Program-made: the position numbers and the translations under genes | The notes under the pieces: model-generated | What the model was told of the DNA's origin: nothing | What the model saw: the letters and a program-made list of their open reading frames with translations, nothing else | Database searches by the model: none | NCBI GenBank assembly: GCA_944359085.1 | Contig: CALVSQ010000001.1 | Location: 1 to 62,378 of the forward strand | Direction of reading: 5' to 3' | Length of the DNA stretch: 62,378 nucleotides | Source: an uncultured Bacilli bacterium | Lineage (GTDB): Bacteria > Bacillota_I > Bacilli_A > RF39 > UBA660 | Shown: positions 1,133-27,760 of the stretch, piece after piece | Numbering within the stretch: the stretch's first letter is position 1 | How the letters are laid out: the number at the start of each line of letters is the position of its first letter

Positions 1133-1142
1133 GAGATGAGTT

Positions 1143-2171
1143 ATGACTTTAATATATTTTATACTGGTATTAAGTATTACAATTTTTGTTCATGAATTAG
1201 GTCACTTTATATTTGCTAAGAAAGCAGGTATTCATGTTTATGAATTCTGTATTGGTATGGGACCTAGAATATTTAAATTTACAAGAAAAAATGATGAAAC
1301 TGAATATGGAATTAGATTATTTCCAATTGGTGGTTTTTGTGCTATGGCTGGTGAAGGCGTAGAAGATGATGAAGATGTTCCAAATGATAAAAAATTACAA
1401 AATAAAACATGGATGCAAAGATTTTTAACAATCGTTGCTGGTGTTATGTTTAATTTTATCTTTGCTTTAATTATATTAATTATTATTGGTTTTATAAATG
1501 GTAATCCAAATAATAAGCCAATTGTATCTCAAGTTCCTGTTGATAGCCCAAGTTATAATGCTGGATTACAAACTGGTGATGTAATTAAAACATTAAATGG
1601 TACTAAAATAAATACGATTGATAGATTGATGATTGAATATCAAATGAACTACGGTGAAACTTTAGAATTAGAAGTTTTAAGAGATGATAAACTAGAAAAA
1701 ATTAACATTGTACCAACTGAAAAAGATGGTGTATATTCATATGGATTTTCATTAGATTCAACTATTAGATATGGATTTTTTGAAGGTATTAAATATGGTT
1801 TTAGTAAATTCTTTAGTTTAATTGAACAAATGTTTTTAGTAATTACTTATTTAGTTACTGGGAAACTTAGTTTATCTAATTTATCGGGTCCAGTAGGGAT
1901 TTATAATATTGTAGGTGAATCAGCTAAAGCAGGATTACTTAATTTAGTTTATTTAACTGGTTACTTAAGTATCAATGTTGGATTTATTAATTTATTACCA
2001 ATACCAGCATTTGATGGTGGAAGAATTTTATTTTTAATAATTGAAAAAATAAGAAGAAAACCAATTAAACCAAGTGTTGAAAATACAATTCATGCAGTAG
2101 GACTCGCACTTCTTATGATTTTAATGGTCGCAATAACTTATAACGACATTGTAAGGTTTATTATTAAATGA
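1143..2171 (+). CDS. rseP: site-2 intramembrane zinc metalloprotease (RseP/RasP family)
   Basis: HELGH zinc motif in first TM, central PDZ-like segment, C-terminal NLLPIPAFDGG motif. Confidence 0.9.
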   Translation: MTLIYFILVLSITIFVHELGHFIFAKKAGIHVYEFCIGMGPRIFKFTRKNDETEYGIRLFPIGGFCAMAGEGVEDDEDVPNDKKLQNKTWMQRFLTIVAGVMFNFIFALIILIIIGFINGNPNNKPIVSQVPVDSPSYNAGLQTGDVIKTLNGTKINTIDRLMIEYQMNYGETLELEVLRDDKLEKINIVPTEKDGVYSYGFSLDSTIRYGFFEGIKYGFSKFFSLIEQMFLVITYLVTGKLSLSNLSGPVGIYNIVGESAKAGLLNLVYLTGYLSINVGFINLLPIPAFDGGRILFLIIEKIRRKPIKPSVENTIHAVGLALLMILMVAITYNDIVRFIIK

Positions 2172-2485
2172 TAACAATTAGTTGTTGTAAACATTATGAT
2201 AAAATAGTAAATTTCTTATATTTAGAAAATGATATTATGTCTAAGTTATTGATAGATTATTATCAAGAATATGTTTTTAATATTAAAAGCGAAAAGAGTA
2301 AAATAAAAGTAGATAATATTATGAATTTATATACTGATAAAGAAGATTTTTATAAATATGTTCAATTAAAGTTACAAGATGATATATATGATAACTATGA
2401 AAAAGTAATTAGAAAATTAGTTAAAATTTATAATGAATATGAAAATGATAAATTAAAAAAAATCAAAAATTCGAGGTGGTTATAA
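2168..2485 (+). CDS. hypothetical protein
   Basis: ATGA overlap with the rseP stop and TAATG overlap with the next gene. No recognisable motif. Alternative start at ATG 2237. Confidence 0.4.
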   Translation: MITISCCKHYDKIVNFLYLENDIMSKLLIDYYQEYVFNIKSEKSKIKVDNIMNLYTDKEDFYKYVQLKLQDDIYDNYEKVIRKLVKIYNEYENDKLKKIKNSRWL

Positions 2486-3384
2486 TGTTAAAAGTGGATG
2501 GAGTTACAAAATATTATGGTGATTTTAAAGCCGTAGATAATTTATCTTTTGAAGTAAAACCTGGAGAAATATTTGGACTATTAGGTGTCAATGGTGCAGG
2601 TAAAACAACAACTTTTAGAATGATTATGGGATTACTTGAACCAACTAGTGGTAATATTACTTTAAATGGCAAAAAAATAGATTATGATGTTACAGATAAA
2701 ATTGGTTTTTTAACCGAAGAAAGAAGTTTATTAACTAAATTAACAGTTAAAGAACAATGTATCTTCTATGGTGTTTTAAAAGGGATGAAAGAAGAAGATA
2801 TATTAAAAAGAACAAAAGAATTATTAGAAAAATTTGAAATACCAGAATATTTAGATAAAAAAATAAAAGAATTATCAAAAGGTAATCAACAAAAAGTTCA
2901 ATTTATAACAGCTATTTTAAATGAACCAGAATTATTAATACTAGATGAACCATTTAGTGGATTAGATCCATTTAATGTTGAAATGTTTAAAAAAGAAATA
3001 GTGGAAATGTCTAAAAAAGGTAGTATGATTATATTTTCTTCTCACCGAATGGAACATGTTGAATTATTTTGTAAAAAATTAGTTGTTTTAATGCAAGGTA
3101 AATCAGTTTTATCAGGAGAACTTAAGAAAATAAAGCAACAATATCGTAAGAAAAATATTTTAATTAAAGGTGATATTGATACTAAAGAACTAGAAAAAAT
3201 AAATGGTGTGGTTTCAGTTACTAAGAAATCTGATGAATATGAAGTTAAAATTGAAAATCAAGATATAGTTAAAGATGTATTTAAATATGTTAGTAAATGT
3301 GATAATGTAGTAAAATTTTCTGTTGAAGAACCATCTTTAAATGAAATATTTGTAGCTAAAGTAGGTGAATCTTATGAAAAATAA
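2485..3384 (+). CDS. ABC transporter ATP-binding protein (NatA/YhaQ-like)
   Basis: Walker A GVNGAGKTT, signature LSKGNQQKV, Walker B LLILDEPFSGLD. ATG lies 6 nt after GAGGTGG. Confidence 0.9.
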   Translation: MLKVDGVTKYYGDFKAVDNLSFEVKPGEIFGLLGVNGAGKTTTFRMIMGLLEPTSGNITLNGKKIDYDVTDKIGFLTEERSLLTKLTVKEQCIFYGVLKGMKEEDILKRTKELLEKFEIPEYLDKKIKELSKGNQQKVQFITAILNEPELLILDEPFSGLDPFNVEMFKKEIVEMSKKGSMIIFSSHRMEHVELFCKKLVVLMQGKSVLSGELKKIKQQYRKKNILIKGDIDTKELEKINGVVSVTKKSDEYEVKIENQDIVKDVFKYVSKCDNVVKFSVEEPSLNEIFVAKVGESYEK

Positions 3385-4690
3385 ATTAAAGTTTTTAATT
3401 GGTATGAGTTTAAAAAGAAAAATTAAAACTAAATGGTTCGTTTTAGCTAATATCTTTTTAGCTATCTTAATAATTGGTGTAGCAAACATTGACCATATTA
3501 TTACTTTCTTCGGTGGCGATTTTGATAAAGCTACTAAGATTTATGTAATCGATAATACTAATACTTATGATGTATTTAAAGCTAGTATTGATGCAGGATT
3601 TAAATTAACAGAAAATAGTAAGTATGAAATTATTAAATATGATAATTCTAAAGAAGAAATAACTGAAACAATTAAAACAAACGAAGAAGAGAAAGATTCT
3701 ATAGCATTAGTTTTTGATTATGATGAAGAAAACATTGTAAAAGTAGAAATGATTACAAATGGTTTTGTTGATACTTTAAATATGAGTTTAATTAATAGTG
3801 CAGTTAATTCTGTTAAAACTTATTTAGCAGTTGAAAAATTTGAAATAAGTGAAGAAGAATTATTAGCTTTAAATACACCTGTTACTATTGAAAGAACTGT
3901 TTTAGATGAAGAAAAAGACTCAACTGAAGAAAATATGGAAATGATAATGAGTGCTGTTTTCCCAGTTATTATATTACCATTTTTCATGTTAGTAATATTT
4001 TTAGTTCAAATGATTGGTGCTGAAGTTAATGATGAAAAGACTACTCGTGGTATGGAAATAATAATAGGAAATGTGTCACCACAAGTTCATTTCTTTAGTA
4101 AATGTATAGCTGGTAATTTGTTTATATTAATTCAAGCAGGTTTATTATTGTTATTCGGTATATTAGGTTTTATATCAAGAAGTTTCTTTGGTGATGTATC
4201 AGGTATTGGTGATGTATTTAATCAAGTAACTGGTATGATGAATAGTTTATTTACGCCTTCATTCATTGAATCATTAAGATATATAATACCATTAATATTA
4301 GTACTTATGATATTAACTTTTATTGGTTATTCTTTATTAGCAGGTATATTAGCTAGTATGACTACTAATACTGAAGATTTTCAACAATTACAAACACCTA
4401 TTATGTTAATTAGTTTATTAGGTTATTATCTTGCTATTATAGCTGGCGGTTTTAAAGGATCATTAATAATTAATATTTTAGGATATGTTCCATTTATATC
4501 AGCTATCTTAAGTCCATCTTTATTAGTTATGGGTGAATTTACTGTTATTGATGTATTAATTTCTATTGGATTAATGATAGTAGTTATATTCTTATTAATT
4601 AAATATGGATTAAAAATATATAAAGTAGGAATATTAAATTATTCTTCTGATAAATTATGGCGCAAAATGTTTAAAGCACTTAAAAACTAG
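3374..4690 (+). CDS. ABC-2 type permease (NatB/YhaP-like)
   Basis: N-terminal TM, large extracytoplasmic segment, then about five TM helices. Start overlaps the upstream ATPase gene. Confidence 0.7.
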   Translation: MKNKLKFLIGMSLKRKIKTKWFVLANIFLAILIIGVANIDHIITFFGGDFDKATKIYVIDNTNTYDVFKASIDAGFKLTENSKYEIIKYDNSKEEITETIKTNEEEKDSIALVFDYDEENIVKVEMITNGFVDTLNMSLINSAVNSVKTYLAVEKFEISEEELLALNTPVTIERTVLDEEKDSTEENMEMIMSAVFPVIILPFFMLVIFLVQMIGAEVNDEKTTRGMEIIIGNVSPQVHFFSKCIAGNLFILIQAGLLLLFGILGFISRSFFGDVSGIGDVFNQVTGMMNSLFTPSFIESLRYIIPLILVLMILTFIGYSLLAGILASMTTNTEDFQQLQTPIMLISLLGYYLAIIAGGFKGSLIINILGYVPFISAILSPSLLVMGEFTVIDVLISIGLMIVVIFLLIKYGLKIYKVGILNYSSDKLWRKMFKALKN

Positions 4691-4709
4691 ATTAATTCTA
4701 GTTTTATTT

Positions 4710-4794
4710 GCACAGATGGTGGAATAGGCAGACACGCAGGCTTGAGGTGCTTGTGAAGTAATTCGTGAGGGTTCGAGTCCCTTTCTGTGCACCA
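4710..4794 (+). tRNA. tRNA-Leu(GAG), type II with long variable arm, CCA encoded
   Basis: Hand-folded cloverleaf: acceptor GCACAGA/TCTGTGC, anticodon stem CAGGC/GCTTG, loop TTGAGGT, T-arm GAGGG-TTCGAGT-CCCTT. Confidence 0.9.
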
Positions 4795-4876
4795 AATTTG
4801 TAAAACTTATATCAAACTTGACTTTTAAGTGATTTTGATGTATCATATTGAAAATTCTTATGAAGGGGGAAATAAG

Positions 4877-5398
4877 ATGGAAAATATATTTTTTAAAGGA
4901 TTAGAAAAATCATTAAATGAAGGCTGTTATATTAAAGTGTTTAGTTGTTCAATGAGGTATCCTGTTGTTAGAGTTGAAAAGAAAGATAAAGAAACAAATG
5001 AAGAACAATTAATTTCATATGCTGAAAATGGTAATGTATTAGCCGCTCTTAATAGTGCTTCTAAAAAAATAATTGATGAAATATCAAAAGTGGATTGCGG
5101 AACGATTTTATTTTGTGAAAGAACTTTAATTGACAATGTTGTTGAACGAGGATATGATTTACATTTTTATAAATTATCTAATGGCCAAGTATTATCAACT
5201 ATTTGTCGTCATACTTATGGTAATTATATACCAATAAAAAGTATTATAAGTGATGACATTCAAAGTGGTTTTGAAATGTTAAATGCAACTTTACAACCTT
5301 TTGATTTTGAAAGAACTGAAGATTTTGATGATTTTGCTTATAGTCAAACTGACCTTGTAGATGAATATCAAAAAACTTTAAATAAAAAAACTAAATAA
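4877..5398 (+). CDS. hypothetical protein
   Basis: ORF with ATG after a GAAGGGGGA RBS. No recognisable motif. Confidence 0.5.
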   Translation: MENIFFKGLEKSLNEGCYIKVFSCSMRYPVVRVEKKDKETNEEQLISYAENGNVLAALNSASKKIIDEISKVDCGTILFCERTLIDNVVERGYDLHFYKLSNGQVLSTICRHTYGNYIPIKSIISDDIQSGFEMLNATLQPFDFERTEDFDDFAYSQTDLVDEYQKTLNKKTK

Positions 5399-5477
5399 GT
5401 ATTTTTATAATTATGTTATAATATAGTTAGTTAATAATTATTGCTAACTATTTTTATTATAATTTGAAAGGATTCTT

Positions 5478-5972
5478 ATGAAAATATTATATTGTTTTGA
5501 AAATAATAAATACCTAATTAAATTATCAAAAGATAATGATCAAATTAAAATAAATTTTGAAGGTTCTGATTTATATTTTGTAATGTATAATTATCATGAT
5601 GATAATAAGTTTGTTATAGACAATGAAAATGAATTATATAATTATTTTAAAAATTTATTTAATGAAATTAGAATTAATGACAATCCATATGATAAAATAC
5701 TTAATGATAACAAATTTATTTGGATAAGTGAAGATTATGGTGAATATGAAAATGCTAATAAATTAATCATTACAGAACTAGATAATAGTTATATTATTCA
5801 ATTTTATAATAATCCAAATAAGATGTTTGGAAATGCTAAGGTATGTCCTATATGTTTTTGTTTAAGTGGTAGTAAAAATCAGAATATTGTTAACTCATTT
5901 GCTATGATGTTTAATAATATTGTTAGTGAAAAATATTGTAATAAAAAACTGAGAAAGTATAATAAAAGATAA
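5478..5972 (+). CDS. hypothetical protein
   Basis: 164-aa ORF after a GAAAGGA RBS. No recognisable motif. Confidence 0.5.
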   Translation: MKILYCFENNKYLIKLSKDNDQIKINFEGSDLYFVMYNYHDDNKFVIDNENELYNYFKNLFNEIRINDNPYDKILNDNKFIWISEDYGEYENANKLIITELDNSYIIQFYNNPNKMFGNAKVCPICFCLSGSKNQNIVNSFAMMFNNIVSEKYCNKKLRKYNKR

Positions 5973-6066
5973 AAAAATTTATTAAATAAATGTTATTTTT
6001 AATCATTAATTACATAAAATTTTGGCATACATTAAAAAATGTGTTACAATGTGTATGGGTGATTAT

Positions 6067-6321
6067 ATGAACACAATCAATATAACAACTGCTAGACAAA
6101 ATTTATTTCAACTAGTATCTGATGTAAACAAAGAATTTAATCTTATTAAAATTATTAATAGTAAAGGTGAGAATGTGGTTTTATTATCTGAAAGTGATTG
6201 GCGAGATATAGAAGAAACAATTTATTTAAATTCTATTTCTGGTTTTGTTGATACAATAGAAGATACTCGTAAAGAAGAAAAATCTAAATGTAGCATCTAC
6301 AATAAAGGTGAAAAATGGTAG
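6067..6321 (+). CDS. type II antitoxin, Phd/YefM family
   Basis: N-terminus MNTINITTARQNLFQLVSDV...VVLLSESDWRDIEETIYL is typical of Phd/YefM. ATG follows GGGTGA. Confidence 0.8.
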   Translation: MNTINITTARQNLFQLVSDVNKEFNLIKIINSKGENVVLLSESDWRDIEETIYLNSISGFVDTIEDTRKEEKSKCSIYNKGEKW

Positions 6322-6400
6322 AATATAAAATAATTTTGCAGATAAGGATAAAAAAATATTAAAACAATTATGGCTTAAAATTAAGGTAAAGTATAATTAA
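6315..6400 (+). pseudogene. frameshifted, truncated RelE/ParE-type toxin remnant
   Basis: ATG overlaps the antitoxin stop (ATGGTAG). It reads MVEYKII, then needs a 1-nt shift at T-run 6334-6337 to continue ADKDKKILKQLWLKIKVKYN-stop. Confidence 0.35.
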
Positions 6401-6414
6401 GTAAGGTGAAATGG

Positions 6415-6888
6415 ATGAATAAAGAATATAAAATTATAAATAAAAATACCTTTGAAATTGTAGAAGATAGTGATTTTGTCGCAGTTGATAGTCAATTAGC
6501 TAAAGCTATATCAATATTAAATAAGAAAGGTTATTATGTTAAAATGTGTTCTAGAGCAAGAATATCTAGACCATTTTTAATAACTGATTTGATTTATAAT
6601 TTACAAAGTAAAAATTTATTAATAATAAATGAAGAAACTAAAAATGTAATAGATCAATTAGATTATGAATCAACTTTAATAATTTTTAAAGAGAAGTATA
6701 ATTTTAACAATTTACCTAAAAATTTTAAATTAATAGATACTGATTCTGAAAGCCATCTGATTTTTAATTTAAAAGCTTTAAAAAATACAAATGGTATAGA
6801 ACTAAAATCATTAATTGAAATTGATGAAGAACATAATAAAAGTATTAAAGATTTAGAAACTTGGGCAAAAAAATTGCCAAATATTTAA
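6415..6888 (+). CDS. hypothetical protein
   Basis: ORF with ATG after an AAGGTGA RBS. No recognisable motif. Confidence 0.5.
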   Translation: MNKEYKIINKNTFEIVEDSDFVAVDSQLAKAISILNKKGYYVKMCSRARISRPFLITDLIYNLQSKNLLIINEETKNVIDQLDYESTLIIFKEKYNFNNLPKNFKLIDTDSESHLIFNLKALKNTNGIELKSLIEIDEEHNKSIKDLETWAKKLPNI

Positions 6889-6903
6889 AAAGGAGGTTTA
6901 TGT

Positions 6904-7137
6904 ATGAATAAAGAATATGTAAGAGTAATGCTCGGTAGCTAGGAAAATTCTCAATTTATAACAGTAAAAAAAGGAACAAGAGTAATGCTATCTGATGGAA
7001 CTGTTATAAGGGCAGGTGTAACCTGTGAAGAATTTAGACAAGAAATGGATAAAAAAATTGATAAAATTTGTAAACAACAAGATTGTCATGAAAGATTACA
7101 AAAAGTTAAAACTAAAGTATTAAGTTTATTTAAATAG
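6904..7137 (+). pseudogene. small ORF interrupted by in-frame TAG (6940-6942)
   Basis: AGGAGG at 6891-6896 lies 7 nt before the ATG. Twelve codons are followed by TAG, then 64 more open codons in the same frame, ending at a terminator hairpin. Confidence 0.3.
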
Positions 7138-7156
7138 TATGTATAATACTATTTTT
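7132..7156 (+). terminator. rho-independent terminator
   Basis: Perfect 9-bp stem AAATAGTAT/ATACTATTT with a 5-nt loop, followed by a T-run. Confidence 0.5.
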
Positions 7157-7169
7157 AAATATTCAGTAT

Positions 7170-7198
7170 TTGACAATACAAGGTAGTTGATATATAAT
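7170..7198 (+). promoter_or_regulatory. sigma-A type promoter of the padR operon
   Basis: TTGACA, 17-nt spacer, TATAAT, about 18 nt upstream of ATG 7216. Confidence 0.55.
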
Positions 7199-7215
7199 TA
7201 TACAAGAGGTGAGAT

Positions 7216-7545
7216 ATGAACACACAATTTAAAAAAGGCGTTTTAGAGTTAATAGTTTTATTAGCTGTCAATAAAAAAGATATGTATGGTTACGAATTAG
7301 TTATGGAAGTATCTAAAGTTGTCGATGTTAATGATGGAACAATTTATCCATTATTAAAAAGATTAACTAATGAAAGATATTTTGAAACATATTTAGTTGA
7401 TTCTACTGAAGGACCTGCAAGAAAATATTATAAAATAACTGTTTTAGGAAAAGAAAGAGTAGAAGAGTTAAGAGATAATTGGAAGTTATTCGCTAATAGT
7501 GTTAATAAATTTATAAAGGAGAGTATGAAAAATGAACAAAAGTAG
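7216..7545 (+). CDS. PadR family transcriptional regulator
   Basis: KGVLELIVLLAV...MYGYEL...GTIYPLLKRLTNERYFE...ARKYYKIT winged-helix pattern. Confidence 0.9.
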   Translation: MNTQFKKGVLELIVLLAVNKKDMYGYELVMEVSKVVDVNDGTIYPLLKRLTNERYFETYLVDSTEGPARKYYKITVLGKERVEELRDNWKLFANSVNKFIKESMKNEQK

Positions 7546-8848
7546 TTTTATTAGTAAATTAAAGAAAAATTTAAAAATATTAGATGAAAATGAAGTTAAA
7601 GATATAGTTGATGAATATAGCGAAATAATTGATGAAAAGATAAAAAATGGTAAAACAGAAGAAGAAGCTATTAAAGATTTTGGTGATGTAAATGAATTAT
7701 GTAAGGAAATTTTAAAAGCTTATAAAATAAATCCTAAATACACTGATGATGATGTTAAATTTGATTTTGAAAATTTTATTAAGAATACTTCTACTAAATT
7801 ATCTAATTTTACAAAAGGTTTAGTTGAAGATGTAAAAAAACATGATGATATTACTTTAGATTTTGTTTTTGAAGTAATTATTAAAGCTATTATTTTGCTA
7901 GTTATTTTTGCTATCATTGGTTTACCTTTTTTAGTAGTATGTAAATTAGGTTATGCAATATTTGAAATAGCATTCTTCCCATTAAATATTTTATTAAGTG
8001 TTTTATGGGGCATGTTGATATGGATTTTATATTTTGTTGTTTGTGTTTTAATTAGTATTAGAATGTTTAAAGATAATATAAAACAGACAAAAAAAACAGT
8101 AAAAAAAAACAAAAAATTAAAAATTGATGAAGAAAAAAAAGAAGAAAATGTAAAAGAAAAAATAACAAAAGAAAATAAAATAAAAAAAGATGAAGTAGTA
8201 AATATATTAAAAGAAATAGCGAAAATATTTATCTTTATATTTATTATATTACCATTGATATTTGTTAATTTAGGTATCGTAATAGCTATATGTTTCACTA
8301 TTTATTATTTAATAATCGGAATTGATTTGTTAGGTATATTATTTATTTTGTTAGGCTTATTAGTATTTTTTGGTTATATTTCTAATCAGTTATCTAATTT
8401 GTTTAGTAAAAAGATTCAATTTAAATTTTATCCATTTTTAATATTTATTATTTTATTAGGAATTGGAATTATATTATCATTTAATACATTTAAAGATATA
8501 AAGTATATTGAATACGAAAATAATGATGTTTTAAAATATAATTATATTATTGAAAATAAAGTTAACTTATATTTAGAAGGCAATTATGACATTATTTATA
8601 ATGAAGATATGAAAGATAATGAATTAGTTATTGAAGTATATTATAATGATGATTTTGTTACAATAGATGAACAACAATCAAAAAATAGAATAGTAATTTT
8701 ATCAACTGATAAAGGATTTTCTAACTGGTACAATGATTGTATAAATAATTTAAAAGATAATAAAATAGTTAATTATAGTAAAGCAAGTGAATTATATTTT
8801 AAAGTATATGGAAATAGACAAACTATTGACGATATTAATATTAAATGA
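7532..8848 (+). CDS. PadR-associated membrane protein (DUF1700-like N-terminus)
   Basis: N-terminus FISKLKKNLKILDENEVKDIVDEYSEIIDEKIKNGKTEEEAIKDFG is typical of DUF1700. Multiple TM helices and a Lys-rich linker. Overlaps the padR stop. Confidence 0.7.
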   Translation: MNKSSFISKLKKNLKILDENEVKDIVDEYSEIIDEKIKNGKTEEEAIKDFGDVNELCKEILKAYKINPKYTDDDVKFDFENFIKNTSTKLSNFTKGLVEDVKKHDDITLDFVFEVIIKAIILLVIFAIIGLPFLVVCKLGYAIFEIAFFPLNILLSVLWGMLIWILYFVVCVLISIRMFKDNIKQTKKTVKKNKKLKIDEEKKEENVKEKITKENKIKKDEVVNILKEIAKIFIFIFIILPLIFVNLGIVIAICFTIYYLIIGIDLLGILFILLGLLVFFGYISNQLSNLFSKKIQFKFYPFLIFIILLGIGIILSFNTFKDIKYIEYENNDVLKYNYIIENKVNLYLEGNYDIIYNEDMKDNELVIEVYYNDDFVTIDEQQSKNRIVILSTDKGFSNWYNDCINNLKDNKIVNYSKASELYFKVYGNRQTIDDINIK

Positions 8849-8907
8849 AAAGACATATAAAATTTATGTCTTTTTTTAATTATTGTTATGATATAATTAT
8901 TATAGTT

Positions 8908-8983
8908 GCTGGAATAGCTTAGTTGGTAGAGCAACGCATTCGTAACGCGTAGGTCGTAGGTTCGAATCCTATTTCCAGCACCA
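8908..8983 (+). tRNA. tRNA-Thr(CGT), CCA encoded
   Basis: Hand-folded: acceptor GCTGGAA/TTCCAGC, loop TTCGTAA, T-arm GTAGG-TTCGAAT-CCTAT. TATGATATAAT box lies 10 nt upstream. Confidence 0.9.
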
Positions 8984-9001
8984 TTAAAAAGGAGTATGAT
9001 T

Positions 9002-10042
9002 ATGAAGTTAAGATGGGACAGAATTATAGCAGTATTTTTAGTTTTTGTTTTATTAATAGGGGTAGGAGTTTATTTTTTATTTTTTAACAAAGAAGAAGAA
9101 AAACAACTAGAAGAACCAGATAAACAAGAACCAGTAGTAGAAAAAAAATTACAAATTTTAGATTTGGAATCTGATACTAGACCAATTGCAGTTATGATAA
9201 ATAATCATAAGACTGCGCAACCATATCAAACAGGACTAAATGATGCTTATTTAGTTTATGAAATTGTTGTTGAAGGCGGTATTACTAGAATGATGGCAGT
9301 ATTTAAAGATCAAGATACTGCAACAATTGGTACAGTAAGAAGTTCTAGACATTATTTTCTAGATTATGTTCAAGAAAATGATGCTATATATACACATTTT
9401 GGATGGAGTGAAAAAGCTCAACAAGATATAAATGACTTAAATATTGATAATGTAAATGGATTAGTTGATAGTGGTTTTTGGCGTGATCAAGAATTAAGAA
9501 ATAATGGAGTTCCACTTGAACATACTGCTTATACCAATATAGAAAATATTTTAGAAGTAGCAGATAAAAGAGGATATGAAACAACTTCAACTAAAGACAC
9601 ATTATTAAATTATAGTGTTGATGAAATAGATTTATCAACAATGGAAGGTGCCATTAAAGCTGATAATGTATTTATTGAATATTCTAGTTATCAAGAAAAT
9701 ACATTCAAATATGATCCAGTTAATAAAGTATATAACAAATATAGTGGAGATACTTTAAGAAAAGATTATGTAACAGGTGAAGCTTTTAAGGCAAAAAATA
9801 TTATTACATACCAAGTAAATAATTATAGTATGGATAGTTATGGAAGACAAGAAATAGATAATATTGGTAGTGGTGAAGGATATTTCATATCAAATGGTTA
9901 CGCAGTGCCAATTACTTGGGAAAAGGAAAGTCCATCTAGTCAAACAATTTATAAATTTTTAGATGGAAAAGAAATAACTGTTAATGATGGAATTACCTAT
10001 ATTCAAATTCAACCAAAAAATAAAACTTTAGAAATTGAATAA
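9002..10042 (+). CDS. DUF3048 (YerB-like) membrane-anchored protein
   Basis: N-terminal TM, then RPIAVMINNHKTAQPYQTGLNDAYLVYEIVVEGGITRMMAVF, characteristic of DUF3048. Confidence 0.8.
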   Translation: MKLRWDRIIAVFLVFVLLIGVGVYFLFFNKEEEKQLEEPDKQEPVVEKKLQILDLESDTRPIAVMINNHKTAQPYQTGLNDAYLVYEIVVEGGITRMMAVFKDQDTATIGTVRSSRHYFLDYVQENDAIYTHFGWSEKAQQDINDLNIDNVNGLVDSGFWRDQELRNNGVPLEHTAYTNIENILEVADKRGYETTSTKDTLLNYSVDEIDLSTMEGAIKADNVFIEYSSYQENTFKYDPVNKVYNKYSGDTLRKDYVTGEAFKAKNIITYQVNNYSMDSYGRQEIDNIGSGEGYFISNGYAVPITWEKESPSSQTIYKFLDGKEITVNDGITYIQIQPKNKTLEIE

Positions 10043-12062: not shown

Positions 12063-12136
12063 GCCGATATAGTTTAGTGGTAAAACAGGTCCTTGGTAAG
12101 GATCAGCGGACAGTTCAATTCTGTCTTTCGGCACCA
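12063..12136 (+). tRNA. tRNA-Thr(GGT), CCA encoded
   Basis: Hand-folded: acceptor GCCGATA/TTTCGGC (one mismatch), anticodon stem GGTCC/GGATC, loop TTGGTAA, T-arm GACAG-TTCAATT-CTGTC. Confidence 0.9.
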
Positions 12137-12642: not shown

Positions 12643-14442
<1,800 letters not shown>

Positions 14443-16945: not shown

Positions 16946-20395
<3,450 letters not shown>

Positions 20396-21236: not shown

Positions 21237-22028
21237 ATGGATGGATATTTAAATGAACAATATTTTGTTAACTATTTAAACGGCAAAAAAATAAAAGATT
21301 TAAATATAATGTATCTAGATTTAATAGAAAATATTTTTCCAAATATAAACAATGAAGATAAAATTAAAGTTTGGAAAAATCCATTTTCTCAAAAAACTGA
21401 CATATTTATAAAAATAAATAATATTAAGAAAAGAATAAGTATAAAGTCAGGAATAAAAAATTCAGTTCACGTTGAGCCAATTTCAGAATTTATTCATTTT
21501 TTGATTGAAAATAATATTGAAAAAAAATATATAATAAGTTACTTAAAATATCATTATGCTGATGGAACAACTAATGGTAGTGGCATTAAAAGAGTTTCTA
21601 TAAGTGAATATAAAAAAACAAATCAAGAAGAGATAGATTTATTAAATAAAAGGCTAAATAACAATAATTTAATAAGCAAAGCAATTGAAAGATTTGTTTT
21701 AAGAGGTAATAATGACATATATGAAATTGATGCGTTAATATATGGAGTCTCTAACGATTTTATTTTTATAACAAAAAAAGAAATAAAGGAGATAATAAAC
21801 AAAAAAATTAATTTATATTCAACAGGAATTCATTTTGGCCCATTATCTTGTCAACCAATGAATAGATGTTTGAATTACAATCCTAAATATGAAAAAAATA
21901 GATTTTGTGTCCAAATTAAATGGTATAGTTTATTTGATGATATATTAGAGCATAAAAATGATTTGTTAATAAAAAAATGTCAGAACTCTAATCCTTCCGC
22001 TAAGAACGTGGCACAAAAAAACTTGTGA
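21237..22028 (+). CDS. type II restriction endonuclease-like protein (MspI/HpaII-style core), no adjacent methyltransferase
   Basis: Pattern QKTDIFIKI...KRISIKSG (acidic residue, then Lys in beta strands) and a C-terminal GIHF...VQIKW block recalled from MspI-type enzymes. Assignment is from memory only. Confidence 0.4.
   Translation: MDGYLNEQYFVNYLNGKKIKDLNIMYLDLIENIFPNINNEDKIKVWKNPFSQKTDIFIKINNIKKRISIKSGIKNSVHVEPISEFIHFLIENNIEKKYIISYLKYHYADGTTNGSGIKRVSISEYKKTNQEEIDLLNKRLNNNNLISKAIERFVLRGNNDIYEIDALIYGVSNDFIFITKKEIKEIINKKINLYSTGIHFGPLSCQPMNRCLNYNPKYEKNRFCVQIKWYSLFDDILEHKNDLLIKKCQNSNPSAKNVAQKNL
21982..22011 (+). repeat. tRNA-Gly-derived fragment in inverted orientation, embedded in the CDS 3' end
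   Basis: AGAACTCTAATCCTTCCGCTAAGAACGTGG matches the sense strand of tRNA-Gly (complement of 22082-22112) at 28 positions, with one substitution and small indels. Confidence 0.7.
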
Positions 22029-22057: not shown

Positions 22058-22131
22058 TGGAGCGGGTGATGGGAATCGGACCCACGTTCTTAGCTTGGAA
22101 GGCTAGAGTTCTACCATTGAACTACACCCGC
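22058..22131 (-). tRNA. tRNA-Gly(TCC), CCA encoded
   Basis: The reverse complement folds with acceptor GCGGGTG/CACCCGC, anticodon loop CTTCCAA, T-arm GTGGG-TCCGATT-CCCAT. Confidence 0.9.
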
Positions 22132-22328: not shown

Positions 22329-22589
22329 ATGGAAACATTAAAAGTAGGATCAAAATCAAATCCTAATTCAGTAGCTGGAGCACTAGCGAATGTATTTAGA
22401 GAAAAAGGAAGTTTAGAAATTCAAGCCATAGGAGCAGGAGCTTTAAACCAAGCCATTAAAGCAATAGCAATTGCAAGAGGATTTGTAGCACCATCTGGGA
22501 AAAACTTAGTATGTATTCCTGCATTTACTGATATAGTAATTGATGGTGAAGAAAGAACTGCAATTAAATTAATTGTTGAATCGCGATAG
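22329..22589 (+). CDS. spoVS: stage V sporulation protein S
   Basis: 86 aa: LKVGSKSNPNSVAGALANVFREKGSLEIQAIGAGALNQAIKAIAIARGF...GEERTAIKLIV, a full-length match to the SpoVS family. Confidence 0.9.
   Translation: METLKVGSKSNPNSVAGALANVFREKGSLEIQAIGAGALNQAIKAIAIARGFVAPSGKNLVCIPAFTDIVIDGEERTAIKLIVESR
22475..22589 (+). repeat. direct repeat copy 1 (spoVS 3' end)
   Basis: 115 nt, 106/115 identical by hand alignment to 26662..26776. Confidence 0.9.
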
Positions 22590-22613
22590 TTAATAATTTA
22601 ACTAATATACTAG

Positions 22614-22633
22614 ACACCAAATGGTGTTTTTTT
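22614..22633 (+). terminator. rho-independent terminator after spoVS
   Basis: ACACCA-aa-TGGTGT followed by T7. Confidence 0.6.
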
Positions 22634-22659
22634 AATTTTTAATAATTTTTGAAAAAGTG

Positions 22660-22688
22660 TTGATTTTTACTCACAAAGGTGATATATT
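22660..22688 (+). promoter_or_regulatory. candidate promoter of the cassette operon
   Basis: TTGATT, 17 nt, TATATT with an upstream TG (TGaTATATT). Confidence 0.4.
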
Positions 22689-22825
22689 TGTGTTGAAAAA
22701 TTGATAAGTTTTATAAGATTTTAACTTTAAAATTTTTATCATTTTTTATATTAACATTTATAGTTTAATTTATGAATATGTAATAATAAATAATTTAGAA
22801 TAAGAGTTTGGGTGTGAGTAACAAT

Positions 22826-23359
22826 ATGAGAAAAATTATTTTTATTGAAGGATTACCAAATGTTGGTAAAACTTATTTGATAAATAAGATAAGAAATCTT
22901 AATATGAAAAATGTATTTATTGTAGATGAAATTATTAATCCTAATGTAAATAATCCTTTTGCTGATGCTGAAGATTTATTTTTAAAAAATGATGAAATGA
23001 AAGTTAGTAAATATAATGAAGGAATTATTATTATTGATAGGGGACCAATTAGTACTTTAGTATATAATCAAGTTGCACACTTGATTGATAATAACTATAA
23101 TTGTAAGTATGTTGAGGAATGGTTTAAACAATTTGTTGATATTTATAATGATGATAATACATTTAATTATTATTTAAATAATCCTTTTGTGTATGAACCA
23201 TCTCTTGATGATAAATCAAATCCTTTTGGTAGTATTGACAATTTAAAATTAACACACTCTTTAATAATTTACAATTTGAAAAAATATGCTAAAAATTTCA
23301 GAGAAATTATTTATAATAAAGATAATTTAATGGAGGTTATTGATGAGATTATTAATTAA
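22826..23359 (+). CDS. P-loop kinase, thymidylate/deoxynucleoside-kinase-like fold
   Basis: IIFIEGLPNVGKTYL (Walker A) and IIIDRGPISTLVYNQ (DRxxxS..Y as in Tmk/dNK). Confidence 0.55.
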   Translation: MRKIIFIEGLPNVGKTYLINKIRNLNMKNVFIVDEIINPNVNNPFADAEDLFLKNDEMKVSKYNEGIIIIDRGPISTLVYNQVAHLIDNNYNCKYVEEWFKQFVDIYNDDNTFNYYLNNPFVYEPSLDDKSNPFGSIDNLKLTHSLIIYNLKKYAKNFREIIYNKDNLMEVIDEIIN

Positions 23360-24605
23360 TTTGTGTGCACATGATGGAATAATAAGCCATTATGCAGGTG
23401 TTGGAACCATTGTAAGAAGGTATATAGAGGCAATTAAATATTTATTAGATAAAAATAATATAAATTATCATTTAAATTTATTCACATTAGAATTTAATAA
23501 AGATAGTATGGGATATAATGAGAATATTTGGAAGGAACATAGTAATTTAGATAATACATTTATTTATATTTGTTCTAACGGAACAAATGGTGAGACTAGC
23601 TTTGGAAATATACATAATTGGAGATTAGCTTCTAAAAAAGTTTCAGAAATTATAAATAAAATTGATTTTAAAAAATATGATTATGTCATAACTTTAGCAA
23701 ACGATACTCCATTTGCTGGATTGCTTGAATTAGTAAAAGAAGAAGAAAATAGCATTAAAGCATGGATTCCTCATTCAACTGGAAAAATATATAATGAAGA
23801 CATGTCATTATCAAAAGAAAATCAAACTAGGAATGAAAGATTAGAATGGGAACAAGATGTAATTGATTATATAAATAAACATGATAGAACATACCTTATT
23901 TCAACAGGAAAATATATAAGGAATCATATTATAGATGAATATGGGTTAAATAAAGATAAAAATATAGATATTATAAATGGTGAATTGTTATTTAGAGATA
24001 ATATTTATGATAAAAATGATAGAATGAAGGAAATATTAAAAGAATTAGAAAAATATAATTCAATTATTTTGTCTTTAGGACGAGCTGAAAAATATAAAAA
24101 TTTAGATAAAACTATGTTGCTTGGTAAAGAGATGGAAATTAAATCTGTTGTTATTACACAACAATATTTTGAAAACCAACCAATTGTAGTGGATTATAAA
24201 AAGTTAGCTTTGGAAACAAATTCTATATTGTATGTCGACGAACCATTTTCTCTTCCACAATATCTTGTTCAAAATTATAGTAAAAAAATGATTATGCTGA
24301 TACCATCAGAAAGAGAAATTTTTGGACTTGTTATAAATGAAATGAGAAGATTTAACAAAGATAATGTTCTTATAGTTGCTAATAAAAGAGGTGGTCTTAT
24401 TGAACAAATAAATGACGGTATTGATGGCATTTTAGTTGATTTAGATAATATTGCTGAGACAAGTACAAAAATTAAAAAATATTTTAATGATGTTGATATT
24501 AAAAAGCTAAATAATGCTGGACAAAAAAGATTAAGTAAAGATTACGATTTAATAAAGAATTTTGATCTATTTTTAAAAAGAATATTAGGTGATGCTTATG
24601 AATAG
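23343..24605 (+). CDS. GT-B fold glycosyltransferase (GT4-like C-terminal half)
   Basis: LGRAEKYKNLD ... LIPSEREIFGLVINEMRR ... KRGGLIEQINDGIDGILVD fits the E-x-FG...E..a.G / GG..E....G..G nucleotide-sugar pocket pattern. ATG follows GGAGG. Confidence 0.6.
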   Translation: MRLLINLCAHDGIISHYAGVGTIVRRYIEAIKYLLDKNNINYHLNLFTLEFNKDSMGYNENIWKEHSNLDNTFIYICSNGTNGETSFGNIHNWRLASKKVSEIINKIDFKKYDYVITLANDTPFAGLLELVKEEENSIKAWIPHSTGKIYNEDMSLSKENQTRNERLEWEQDVIDYINKHDRTYLISTGKYIRNHIIDEYGLNKDKNIDIINGELLFRDNIYDKNDRMKEILKELEKYNSIILSLGRAEKYKNLDKTMLLGKEMEIKSVVITQQYFENQPIVVDYKKLALETNSILYVDEPFSLPQYLVQNYSKKMIMLIPSEREIFGLVINEMRRFNKDNVLIVANKRGGLIEQINDGIDGILVDLDNIAETSTKIKKYFNDVDIKKLNNAGQKRLSKDYDLIKNFDLFLKRILGDAYE

Positions 24606-25974
24606 ATTACTTCCAATAATTGATGAAATGGATACAATAGTTGATTCAAGATGCACATTTAGTGAAACACCTATGGTAAAAAATTTTTTGTTGCTATCAG
24701 AAAAAGATAAATTACAAGTTTTGGCAGATTTAGTTCGGCAGACAATATTATATTCAGAAACTCCCAATCCGGATTTTGAGTTGAAAACCTTAATAGGAGA
24801 TGATTATACTTCTTCTAAAGTATTTATAAATTATGCTAAGTTTTTAGGATTATATAACGATGTTAGACTTGCCATTGGTGGAAGCAGAAAAGGAATAGAT
24901 TTAGATGGATATAATACATCACATTTTGTGGTCGTGGTTAGAGATCTAAACAATAAAGAATATTTAGTTGATACGACTCCTGATATAGGGTATAGCTTTG
25001 GAGAAGTAAAAAGAAAAGAAGATTCAAATATATATACTTATTTAACTTATGTAGATGAAGAATTAGATGAAATAATATATGTTATTAGGAAAAGTATGTA
25101 TGAAATAAGTAAAGGATTATACCGTCAAGGACATATTGAACTATATAATTGCTATAAAAGATTATTTGATAGAGAATGTTTTAATGGACTACTACTAAAA
25201 TTTTATGATATAGTTGATAAAAGTAGTTTTTTTCAATTAAAGAATATATTGAAAAAAGAATATGGTAGTAAAATTAAAAGATTAAAAGAATTAAATATTA
25301 TGAATCAAGAACATAAGAAACGTATTATTAATAGATGGGAAGAACAGCTAAAATTTTTATTATCTCATAGTAAAGATAATAGAGCACAACAAAGAATTGC
25401 TCAACGTATCGTCGGTGAAAGAAAAAATAATTTGACTTTAAATATTAATGGGCAAAATATTAAATTAAATAATATTACTCCAAGATTATTTTGGGAATTA
25501 GGATGTAATGTCGTATTAATTAAGCCATCTTCATTTGCTGTAGGTGTTTCAGCATCTGTTACTGAATATATGATTCCTGATAGAAGCAAAATTATTACTT
25601 CTTATGATGCTAATTTAGGTGCACCTTCAGAACTAGGATTAAAACCTATGAGTTATTTTCATCCACATGGAATGAAATATGAACAACAAATGTTTGGTAT
25701 AAGTAGAATAATTTTAATACAAGATAATGCAAAAAAACTAAATGATAGGAAACATTTTATAAGAGAAAATTTTGTTCAAAAAATTGCGGGACATTATGTC
25801 AATTGGTTTGATGGAAGCAAGATGTTATGGGATCCTAGTTTAAATACTAATATGGTTCATTCAACAGATGATGCTAATGAGACTAGCATACATTTTTTAG
25901 CTGATTATCCTGAATATCAAGTATTTACTAGATATAATTATCCTAATCCAATATTAAGAAAGGAAAAGAAATAA
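24598..25974 (+). CDS. hypothetical ~458-aa protein
   Basis: Translationally overlapped with both neighbours. The N-terminal segment (SHFVVVVRD...EYLVDTTPD) vaguely recalls a papain/transglutaminase-like H...D core without the Cys. Confidence 0.5.
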   Translation: MNRLLPIIDEMDTIVDSRCTFSETPMVKNFLLLSEKDKLQVLADLVRQTILYSETPNPDFELKTLIGDDYTSSKVFINYAKFLGLYNDVRLAIGGSRKGIDLDGYNTSHFVVVVRDLNNKEYLVDTTPDIGYSFGEVKRKEDSNIYTYLTYVDEELDEIIYVIRKSMYEISKGLYRQGHIELYNCYKRLFDRECFNGLLLKFYDIVDKSSFFQLKNILKKEYGSKIKRLKELNIMNQEHKKRIINRWEEQLKFLLSHSKDNRAQQRIAQRIVGERKNNLTLNINGQNIKLNNITPRLFWELGCNVVLIKPSSFAVGVSASVTEYMIPDRSKIITSYDANLGAPSELGLKPMSYFHPHGMKYEQQMFGISRIILIQDNAKKLNDRKHFIRENFVQKIAGHYVNWFDGSKMLWDPSLNTNMVHSTDDANETSIHFLADYPEYQVFTRYNYPNPILRKEKK

Positions 25975-26459
25975 TGAATAAAGAATATGAATATAGTTTA
26001 AAAGTAAAAGATGTAAGTGAATTTATAAAATATTGTAATGATAATAATTATGTAAAAGAAGATGAGTATTTGCAAACAAGAACGCTTTTTAAAAATGGTG
26101 GACCTGTTATGGCTAGAATTACGGAAAATGAAATAAATGGTAAAGTAGAAAAGATACTTAATTTTAAAGATGATAATTTAAATGATAATACTTTGAAAAT
26201 ATCAAGAGAAAGTAAAGATTTAATTGTTACTTCAGAAAATGAAGAATTTGTTGAATCATTACTTCAAATATTAGATTTAAATAATAAGAAAGTTTTAAAA
26301 AGAAAAAGATATGTATTTGTTAAAGAATATGTTAAGTTTGAAATTGATGAATATTTAGAGCCTATTATGAATGTTATAGCTATTGAAGGAATTAAAGAAG
26401 AAGTAGATAAAGTATATGAATCTTTATCCGAACTTATAAATATTCAAAAGGTTGATTAA
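25974..26459 (+). CDS. CYTH-like (triphosphate tunnel metalloenzyme) domain protein
   Basis: N-terminal EYEYSLKV (ExExK-like) and C-terminal KRKRYVFVKEYVKFEIDEYLEP..VIAIEG resemble the CYTH strands. TAATG overlap with the upstream gene. Confidence 0.45.
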   Translation: MNKEYEYSLKVKDVSEFIKYCNDNNYVKEDEYLQTRTLFKNGGPVMARITENEINGKVEKILNFKDDNLNDNTLKISRESKDLIVTSENEEFVESLLQILDLNNKKVLKRKRYVFVKEYVKFEIDEYLEPIMNVIAIEGIKEEVDKVYESLSELINIQKVD

Positions 26460-26480
26460 AAGAATGAATCATTCTTTTTT
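26458..26480 (+). terminator. rho-independent terminator of the cassette operon
   Basis: AAAAGAAT-gaatc-ATTCTTTT with a T-run. Confidence 0.6.
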
Positions 26481-26661
26481 ATTTAAAAGTTTTTTGTTTG
26501 TAGCATAAACATATAGTATATTTTATTTTTAAAATTTAGTTTGAATTATAAAGATAATAATTTAGAGGTATGCGTTTTTACTATCAATTGCATCTTCGTT
26601 GTTTGAAAAATAATAGTAGAAACTAGTCATTCTTAAATTATTACTGCTTCCAAAGTGTAGT

Positions 26662-26776
26662 AAGAGGATTTGTAGCACCATCAGGGAAAAACTTAGTATG
26701 TATTCCTGCATTTACTGACATAGTAATTGATGGTGAAGAAAGAACTGCAATTAAATTAATCGTAGAGGCTAAATAG
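26662..26776 (+). pseudogene. spoVS 3' fragment (codons 50-86 only), direct repeat copy 2
   Basis: Encodes RGFVAPSGKNLVCIPAFTDIVIDGEERTAIKLIVEAK-stop with no 5' part. Followed by its own terminator GGCT-aaat-AGCC plus T8 (26767-26786). Confidence 0.85.
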
Positions 26777-26815
26777 CCTTTTTTTTATATTCTCATATAA
26801 TAATATGGTGATTAT

Positions 26816-27760
26816 ATGAAAGAATTAATAGGAAATACTCCTTTAATAAAAATAAAATATAGGTATCAAAATAAAATAAAAAATGTCTATGCAAAATTAG
26901 AATATTATAATTTAACAGGAAGTATAAAAGATAGAATGGCTTATTATATAGTAACTGAAGCATATAAAAATAAAACATTAAATAAAAATCAACCAATTAT
27001 CGAAGCAACAAGCGGCAATACAGGAATATCATTAGCAGCAGTAGGAGCAAAGTTCAATAATCCTGTTTATATCTTTATGCCAGATTGGGTGAGTAAAGAA
27101 AGAAAAAATATAATGGAAAAATATGGTGCTAAAGTCTATTTAGTTTCTAAACAAGAAGGTGGCTTTGTGGAATGTATTAAAAGAGCCAATCAATTAGCAA
27201 AAGAACTTAACGGTTTTAGACCAAATCAATTTGAAAATAAACTAAATGAAGAAATAAATTACATGACGACTGCTCAAGAAATTATAAATAAAAATATAAA
27301 AATTAGTGGATTTGTAAGTGGAGTAGGAACAGGTGGTACTTTGATGGGAATAGGTAAAAAATTAAAAGAAATATATAAAAATTCAAAGGTGATTGCAATA
27401 GAACCAGAAAACTTACCAATTATAAGTAAAGGGATAAACGAAGGAACACATAAAATTGAAGGAATAGGTGATGAATTTATACCTCAATTATTAGATAAAA
27501 ATATAATTGATCAAATAATATTAATAAATGATGAAGATGCAATAAATATGACAAACTTATTAGCAAGTAAACTTGGGTTAGGAGTTGGAATATCAAGTGG
27601 TGCTAATTTTTTAGGAGCAGTGCTAAGCAATTTAGATAATGTAGTAACAGTGTTTCCAGATGATTTAAAAAAATATCTTAGTGTTGATAACAAAATTAAA
27701 GAACAAGAAAACAATTTCATATCAAATAAAATAGAATTAATAGATTTTGAAATAGTTTAA
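26816..27760 (+). CDS. cysK: cysteine synthase A (O-acetylserine sulfhydrylase)
   Basis: PLP-lysine motif GSIKDRMA, TSGNTGISLA, GVGTGGTLMG. Confidence 0.9.
   Translation: MKELIGNTPLIKIKYRYQNKIKNVYAKLEYYNLTGSIKDRMAYYIVTEAYKNKTLNKNQPIIEATSGNTGISLAAVGAKFNNPVYIFMPDWVSKERKNIMEKYGAKVYLVSKQEGGFVECIKRANQLAKELNGFRPNQFENKLNEEINYMTTAQEIINKNIKISGFVSGVGTGGTLMGIGKKLKEIYKNSKVIAIEPENLPIISKGINEGTHKIEGIGDEFIPQLLDKNIIDQIILINDEDAINMTNLLASKLGLGVGISSGANFLGAVLSNLDNVVTVFPDDLKKYLSVDNKIKEQENNFISNKIELIDFEIV

Follow-up and report, generated by a model that had tools for sequence, protein, structure and literature searches.

A recombinase-less cassette in the spoVS gene end of an uncultured Bacilli bacterium, a probable cargo remnant of a large serine recombinase element

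Within the 62,378 nt contig of an uncultured Bacilli bacterium (GenBank assembly GCA_944359085.1, contig CALVSQ010000001.1; hereafter the window), a cassette of four genes stands in the 3′ end of spoVS and is bracketed by two copies of that gene end. The locus raises the question of how an island flanked by attachment-site (att)-like repeats arose with no recombinase of its own. An earlier note on the window alone had offered three options, namely an element mobilized in trans, a decayed element or a cassette type using an unknown insertion route. We compared the window with related contigs and loci, which are designated by L-numbers such as L001, L025 and L121. We consider it about 75% probable that the cassette represents the surviving cargo of an integrative element of the large serine recombinase (LSR) type in the spoVS end, whose recombinase gene was deleted to a stub of ~115 nt.

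The spoVS repeat, the empty site and the displaced gene end

A repeat search detected a direct repeat of 105 nt with 96% identity (22475-22579 and 26662-26766), and alignment through both stop codons extended it to 115 nt (22475-22589 and 26662-26776, both on the plus strand) with 106/115 identical positions. The copies mismatch at 2 positions within the first 99 nt and at 7 within the last 16, and end with ...LIVESR on the left and ...LIVEAK on the right. The left, attL-like copy represents codons 50-86 and the stop codon of an intact spoVS (22329-22589, plus strand), whose 86 aa product matches the Pfam SpoVS profile from 1 to 83 of 83 (E = 5e-38). The right, attR-like copy has neither the 5′ half nor a start codon. 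Upstream of it the window contains no start codon and only an in-frame TAG at 26624-26626, and the sole SpoVS-like sequence elsewhere in the window is this fragment (26654-26773). The G+C content is very low, about 20-30% over the profiled stretch of the window, and a terminator scan found three terminator-like sites in the region versus 0.5 expected from shuffled sequences. The hairpin downstream of the left copy (22612-22629, plus strand) is conserved along with the cassette at every occupied locus; it would be borne by the element and serve the rebuilt spoVS. The hairpin at the right copy (26764-26781, plus strand), which includes the stop codon and is followed by cysK (26816-27760), is the putative ancestral spoVS terminator.

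The 4072 nt between the copies harbor four co-oriented genes that overlap or abut each other. Searches with Pfam, NCBIfam, PADLOC and PHROGs identified no intact integrase, recombinase or transposase among these four genes, and likewise no relaxase. The identical arrangement was seen in >30 independent metagenome contigs, and the structure is therefore not an assembly artefact.

Judged by the 458 aa protein encoded in the cassette, the nearest public genomes are the uncultured Bacilli metagenome-assembled genome BRZ_CH bin62 (99%) and Candidatus Faecisoma merdavium (98%); NCBI places Faecisoma under Mycoplasmatota incertae sedis. The window's exact CysK retrieved contig L001, in which tRNA-Gly, spoVS ending with ...VEAK, the GGCT/AGCC hairpin and cysK follow each other without the cassette. 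The flanks of L001 are 95-97% identical to those of the window, which assigns both to the same species. Its CysK is identical to that of the window, and its 115 nt gene end equals the right copy of L005 (115/115). Among the contigs encoding the window's exact ...VESR SpoVS, all those read (16/16) carry the cassette or its start where they are long enough downstream. In a related genus, a single spoVS likewise ends with ...VEAK, its stop codon being part of the hairpin, and is followed in a conserved order by variable genes, nifU, sufB and SSB. Among 120 close SpoVS homologues, EAK is the commonest ending (43) and ESR is rare (7). Since ...VEAK is found at the empty site and in the related genus and its ending is the commonest among the homologues, the right copy is the displaced ancestral gene end. 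Contig L068 was considered as a source of the ...VESR end and rejected; it shares the protein ending, but lacks a cassette and has an unrelated DNA sequence. As a separate observation, the spoVS-nifU interval differs in content: it holds cysK in the window species, nothing in the F. merdavium group, and genes for a 349 aa protein and a TPM-phosphatase in the related genus (L058-L067).

The sequences of the cassette and of its host differ in their history. Between the window and F. merdavium (L025), identity at third codon positions is 98.7-99.4% in the cassette and 65% in sufB, and the flanking DNA is about 80% identical at the nucleotide level. For the more distant L108 lineage, the third-codon identity to the window amounts to about 90% for the cassette genes and to 60% for the spoVS 5′ half. 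In the right copy, 10 positions distinguish the window from L025, all of which are third codon positions and synonymous. The window and L108 differ at 12 (11 at third positions) and L025 and L108 at 14 (13 at third positions), with no non-synonymous change in either pair. Under free drift of an untranslated fragment, the chance that 10/10 changes fall at third positions is about (1/3)^10 = 2e-5. By this pattern of substitutions, the right copy evolves as host coding DNA does.

In the left copy, positions 47-115 are identical across three host backgrounds (L005, L025 and L072) and positions 1-46 are host-specific. As the end of the left copy is identical across hosts and the right copy is host-specific, the left end travels with the cassette and the right copy stays with the host, a division that corresponds to the attL/attR pattern. 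In terms of the gene, spoVS of the window is chimeric, with a 5′ part of host DNA and last codons (...VESR) derived from the element. The junction between element and host is identical in five host backgrounds. Host-type bases start from repeat position 1 in L121, where the 24 nt to the left of the right copy are identical to those of the merdavium group, and are found by position 16 in the right copy of the merdavium group. We infer that the crossover coincides with the left repeat edge, in line with the short crossover of a serine recombinase.

These comparisons uphold the earlier description of a complete spoVS, of a 115 nt repeat with 106/115 identical positions and the endings ...LIVESR and ...LIVEAK, and of a terminator hairpin for each copy. 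The earlier note had also asked for an empty site, which L001 supplies within the same species with the ...VEAK spoVS, the hairpin and an identical CysK, and for the ancestral allele, which is ...VEAK according to the related genus and the commonest ending. Its claim that an element entered the gene end and brought a replacement 3′ end agrees with the unoccupied site of L001, with the host character of the right copy and with the element character of the left end.

A serine recombinase stub beside the right copy

The stretch between the operon and the right copy (26544-26661, plus strand) corresponds to the 3′ end of an LSR gene. It reads towards the right copy and is a pseudogene stub with a 1 nt indel and a 76 nt deletion between 26629 and 26630. 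The counterpart was found in L121 (ERZ24773518, BRZ_QV), which was retrieved via the exact 161 aa protein of the cassette and whose part comprising the glycosyltransferase, 458 aa and 161 aa genes (GT-U458-U161) is 99.4% identical to 23310-26469 of the window. In L121 this part is followed by an IS3-type transposase gene, a 299 aa TraG/VirD4-like fragment, an LSR gene, the 24 nt right flank and the right copy. The right copy of L121 ends with ...VEAK and a hairpin, and the host genes thereafter are just ~67% identical to the window. The LSR gene (L121 6023-7699) encodes three domains, Resolvase, Recombinase and Zn_ribbon_recom, in a single frame that is interrupted by a TAA and a TGA stop, and the C-terminus of its product reads ...SVLSIASSLFEKIIVEASHDSEENVKAVLHCQLKIDGGERYNL... 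into the right copy.

By blastn, the stub is 78.7% identical to the L121 recombinase gene over 89 nt. Window 26544-26630 aligns to L121 7474-7564 with a score of 85 against a shuffle mean of 26 (z = 20.5), and window 26636-26659 to L121 7647-7670 with a score of 38 against a shuffle maximum of 28. At every locus of the merdavium group the stub is 76 nt longer, and its L025 version matches recombinase residues 339-395 (E = 3.8e-17). The right end of the cassette, non-coding at first sight, is thus what remains of a serine recombinase gene formerly located beside attR.

An LSR stub abutting the right copy explains the missing recombinase, and an unknown insertion route is not needed. The window element, which has the stub and no functional LSR, is a derivative and not a functional member of the LSR elements. 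The earlier statement that there is no recombinase between the copies holds for the four genes, none of which encodes an intact one, but overlooks the degraded LSR 3′ remnant at 26544-26630 and 26636-26659. Of the three options offered earlier, the stub and the near-complete gene in L121 support a decayed element, and the unknown insertion route falls away. The earlier note had also set serine enzymes aside as normally generating no long duplications. This argument fails, as the stub inside the cassette is of an LSR and the repeat would have been carried by the element rather than made by the enzyme.

Two candidates were rejected during this analysis. The two serine recombinases encoded elsewhere in the window are just 25-28% identical to the L121 enzyme, and we dismissed them as helpers of the cassette. 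A third, older spoVS-end remnant between the operon and the right copy ('KIIVETS', 'NLEVCVF') scored z = 0.1-0.5 versus shuffles and proved to be recombinase C-terminal sequence.

Several observations concern open reading frames (ORFs) around these sequences. In the F. merdavium group (L025, ~7037-7345; L116, 4617-4928 and 8885-9196), a 1 nt deletion fuses the stub in frame to the orphan spoVS end. The resulting 103 aa ORF is annotated by the gene caller and has a SpoVS Pfam hit; this predicted ORF is probably an accidental chimera. In the L108-type lineage, an ORF starting with MKYGVGIDISKGKS... lies 3′ of the orphan spoVS end (L111, ~1900-2067), which we take to resemble the N-terminus of an IS110-family transposase. 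In the window, a weak tblastn match of the L121 recombinase at 49637-50059 (25% identity, E = 0.001) falls inside a 405 aa ORF (49211-50428), which may be a further recombinase-like gene.

Origin of the cassette and its exchange between hosts

In the proposed origin, the parent element would have been transferable, probably mobilizable or conjugative, and would have integrated site-specifically in spoVS at codon 49/50. Its left end would supply its own spoVS codons 50-86 (...VESR) with a terminator, so that the gene remains intact, and the host 3′ end (...VEAK with the stop-containing terminator) would be displaced to the right end as an orphan fragment. The recombinase gene would have stood at the right end of the element, reading into the right copy. 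A later deletion would have taken the transfer genes and the recombinase gene except its last ~115 nt, to leave a four-gene operon between two att-like repeats, i.e., a cis-mobilizable element (CIME). Accordingly phrased for the repeat itself, its 115 nt would be a spare 38-codon gene end that the element carried, not a product of the recombinase.

Several points weigh against this origin. The switch from host to element in the left copy varies by strain, unlike the expectation for a fixed crossover: it lies before position 40 in L005, at 46-67 in L025 and L072, and at 88-100 in the window, L073 and L108. The varying switch points presumably arose when homologous recombination later brought in sequence from empty-site alleles. 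Between the window and L025, the 35 nt to the left of the right copy agree at 27/35 positions, against 99% in the cassette interior; this excess divergence implies that the right end is older or has a separate history. No relative with an intact recombinase at the spoVS site was found among the loci compared. The L121 contig has 3x coverage and an IS3 element between the cassette and the recombinase gene, and their link could be a misassembly; the position of the stub right next to the cassette in every other lineage speaks against this. Furthermore, the left end of L121 is off the contig. The evidence for a circle consists of a single ambiguous tandem contig, described below, which is either a real tandem or circle or a chimera. 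Finally, a replacement gene end of 115 nt is, to our knowledge, unusually long for serine-recombinase elements.

Homologous recombination of the host clearly acts on this locus, judging from the left-copy switch points and two further features. L012-type strains have a spoVS that is window-like throughout, next to an upstream flank of only about 81% identity. The block of 99-100% identity between the window and L025 ends near 26626, inside the right end of the cassette and ahead of the 35 nt right flank, not at the repeat. The same three features would be accommodated if the cassette had entered by homologous recombination alone, i.e., if a circular or linear copy had used the 115 nt spoVS homology for a Campbell-type or double crossover and a site-specific enzyme had never been involved. 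We regard this alternative as unlikely, because it leaves unexplained both the recombinase stub abutting the right copy and the position of the junction, which coincides with the left repeat edge whatever the host background. Moreover, L025, with its left switch at 46-67 and its right copy of host type from position 16, is impossible by one double crossover into an empty site. Homologous recombination fits best as the present exchange route of the decayed cassette rather than as its origin.

It is very unlikely that the cassette is instead a CIME of a tyrosine-integrase island, possibly served in trans by the 308 aa integrase at tRNA-Gly, ~350 nt upstream of spoVS. Tyrosine-integrase islands classically duplicate a gene end from the crossover up to its stop codon, which counts for this explanation, and such an integrase is encoded just upstream of spoVS in L001 and L117. 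However, it lies outside the repeats, abuts the tRNA-Gly 3′ end and is absent from the window, and it is present at the empty (L001) and occupied (L117) sites alike. The sole recombinase sequence inside the element is of the serine type, and no tyrosine integrase was found between the repeats in any of >30 loci.

That the fragment is the remnant of a tandem spoVS paralogue with a decayed 5′ half, beside an operon that was always resident, is scarcely credible: the fragment does retain the spoVS frame and length, but similarity to the spoVS 5′ half upstream of it is at shuffle level in DNA and protein alignments, the species has an empty site and the related genus a single spoVS, the cassette has diverged far less than the flanking DNA, and a recombinase stub stands upstream of the fragment.

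To return to the decayed LSR element, the window species, the merdavium group and the L108 lineage have a common stub, which secondary deletions shortened further in the window species and in L108, and the right copies and flanks of these three lineages are host-specific. The recombinase-less derivative is thus present in at least three host lineages, and we infer that it spread between them after its decay. The spread would have gone either by homologous recombination via spoVS and the cassette or by a related recombinase acting in trans. A common deletion variant, which joins window position 22712 to 25768, was found in L012, L069, L078, L107, L122, L123 and L127-L136. It keeps only the last 93 codons of the 458 aa gene and the CYTH gene between the repeats.

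Contig L116 (ERZ24773227 NODE_4977, BRZ_AG, 400-9196) contains two cassettes in tandem with an attP-like middle junction. Upstream of where the repeat diverges at its end, the tandem copies agree in each of the 4252 aligned positions. We withdrew it as proof of a circle or tandem, since the right copy of one strain is identical to the left copy of another over 99 nt, which permits an assembly chimera of two strains. Within the strain of the tandem contig, the longest identical run between the left and right copies is 27 nt. A search of JGI metagenomes for attP or circle junctions by the right-flank pattern gave one match, an ordinary right junction.

We put forward, as a tentative idea with the odds well against it, that the decayed cassette is still mobile across species-level Faecisoma lineages as a non-autonomous 'gene-end cassette'. 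It would move via RecA on the 115 nt homology or via a distantly related resident serine recombinase in trans, and the orphan end would be kept coding by regular reuse as a working gene end. Among 28 IMG/VR loci encoding SpoVS homologues, no second partial spoVS copy was found. These viral or prophage contigs (L079-L106) encode SpoVS homologues that are nearly all full length with 49-81% identity, and some of them lie near contig ends.

Cargo, neighboring islands and known systems

The operon is preceded by a promoter-like site (22660-22688, plus strand; TTGATT, 17 nt, TATATT with a TG extension), whose putative function follows from the consensus match and whose region is 97-100% conserved in L025. 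All four genes are on the plus strand. The first (22826-23359) encodes a thymidylate-kinase-like P-loop kinase of 177 aa, which matches phrog_761 (thymidylate kinase; E = 3.5e-9) and, weakly, dTMP-kinase and AAA profiles. The second (23343-24605) encodes a group-1 glycosyltransferase of 420 aa (Pfam Glycos_transf_1, E = 1.7e-8) with partial matches of the BshA-, MshA- and GlgA-like type. The 458 aa product of the third (24598-25974) has no Pfam domain and belongs to a small family of 58 clusters. It shows a weak match to a nucleoside-diphosphate kinase (NDK)-like domain, and its AlphaFold2 model (pLDDT 93) gave only weak nucleoside-diphosphate kinase matches by Foldseek (E about 5e-3). The fourth (25974-26459) encodes a 161 aa protein predicted to adopt the CYTH or triphosphate tunnel metalloenzyme (TTM) fold. 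Its AlphaFold2 model (pLDDT 92) matched TTM and class IV adenylate cyclase structures by Foldseek (E = 7e-8, TM about 0.6-0.7). An AT-rich hairpin with a T-run (aagaatg-aat-cattctt-tttt; 26460-26480, plus strand), read from the sequence and under the G+C threshold of the terminator scan, lies 3′ of the operon. The cargo most likely acts in a pathway related to nucleotides or nucleotide sugars. PADLOC gave no significant hit to known defence systems in the cassette, with one weak kinase match (E = 0.0014), and Rfam identified tRNA-Gly as the only RNA family, with none in the cassette.

The four-gene module is complete at 26/34 species-representative genome loci recovered, 24 of which are outside Faecisoma, where the module occupies varied chromosomal contexts. 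At the loci checked in other genera (L014, L017, L020 and L030), no repeats bracket the operon, and the operon had no match among plasmids, phages or viral contigs. An LSR-homologous ORF is located just 3′ of the CYTH gene of the module in two further uncultured lineages. L030 (5466-10883) carries the whole module with a 528 aa ORF ~180 nt downstream, which is 33% identical to the L121 serine recombinase, and L048 (4518-7294) carries a partial module with an ORF ~570 nt downstream, also 33% identical to the L121 enzyme. These two loci suggest that the operon is a recurrent cargo of LSR-type elements.

The neighborhood of spoVS contains other islands. A second hot spot of integration, occupied differently from strain to strain, flanks tRNA-Gly(tcc) (22058-22131, minus strand) on its 3′ side, ~200 nt upstream of spoVS. 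The occupants are an LSR (17266-19167) with a MobV relaxase (19148-20395) in the window, the 308 aa tyrosine integrase in L001 (946-2037) and L117 (229-1155), and a 611 aa serine recombinase with TnpV and a relaxase in L127 (4084-7647). Many assemblies break at tRNA-Gly. The window encodes a second LSR (597 aa, 12649-14442; Resolvase and Recombinase domains) that lies ~500 nt downstream of tRNA-Thr(ggt) (12063-12136) and possibly indicates a further island, arranged in tandem with that at 17266. The 263 aa protein encoded at 21237-22028 has a PADLOC hit to a type II restriction enzyme (E = 1.4e-12), and no methyltransferase was noticed nearby. This gene has a 78% identical counterpart in F. 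merdavium (L025), so that it may belong to the resident genome and not to the mobilizable island.

The closest parallel is the staphylococcal cassette chromosome (SCC) with its ccr-less relatives, pseudo-SCC and the arginine catabolic mobile element (ACME). PMC7029136 describes for these elements LSR insertion at a fixed site in the rlmH/orfX 3′ end with direct repeats and an intact gene, and derivatives without recombinase that are still flanked by repeats. The spoVS cassette shares with them a serine recombinase, the 3′ end of a conserved gene that stays intact, direct repeats and recombinase-less derivatives. In contrast, its target is spoVS instead of rlmH, its repeat is 115 nt with 38 codons replaced versus about 18 nt, its host is an uncultured gut Faecisoma lineage, and its cargo is a nucleotide/glycosyl operon rather than a resistance gene. 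Of the recombinase here, we know a stub and one pseudogene only. The window serine recombinase at 17266-19167 gave CcrA/B/C-like partial hits well under the curated cut-offs, which indicates that the LSR enzyme class is present in this genome.

The anatomy of the element also matches the definition of a CIME given in PMC5704250. The element has att-like flanks that would stem from site-specific integration and no integration or transfer genes of its own. The coupling-protein and recombinase module would have been lost by deletion, a point that rests on L121 as a 3x-coverage contig with an intervening IS3 element. Classic CIMEs of streptococci derive from tyrosine-integrase elements in fda or tRNA gene ends. 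The putative parent here is of the serine recombinase type, unlike in those cases, and accretion with an intact element is seen at most as one ambiguous tandem contig. Skin in sigK and SPbeta in spsM are LSR elements that split sporulation genes and are excised in sporulation to rebuild them. The spoVS cassette resembles these as an LSR element within a sporulation gene of an endospore-forming Firmicute, but spoVS is kept intact by the replacement end and no developmental excision is required.

A full-text literature search for spoVS with attB returned no report of spoVS as an integration target, the sole paper returned being unrelated. A serine-recombinase element with a 38-codon replacement gene end is likewise unusual, as far as we know. 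The paradox of an att-flanked island without a recombinase now has an ordinary explanation, in that the island would be a decayed LSR element. The cassette is 99% identical where the neighboring genes differ at a third of silent sites, a contrast which suggests that small recombinase-less islets can still sweep across species in gut spore-formers.

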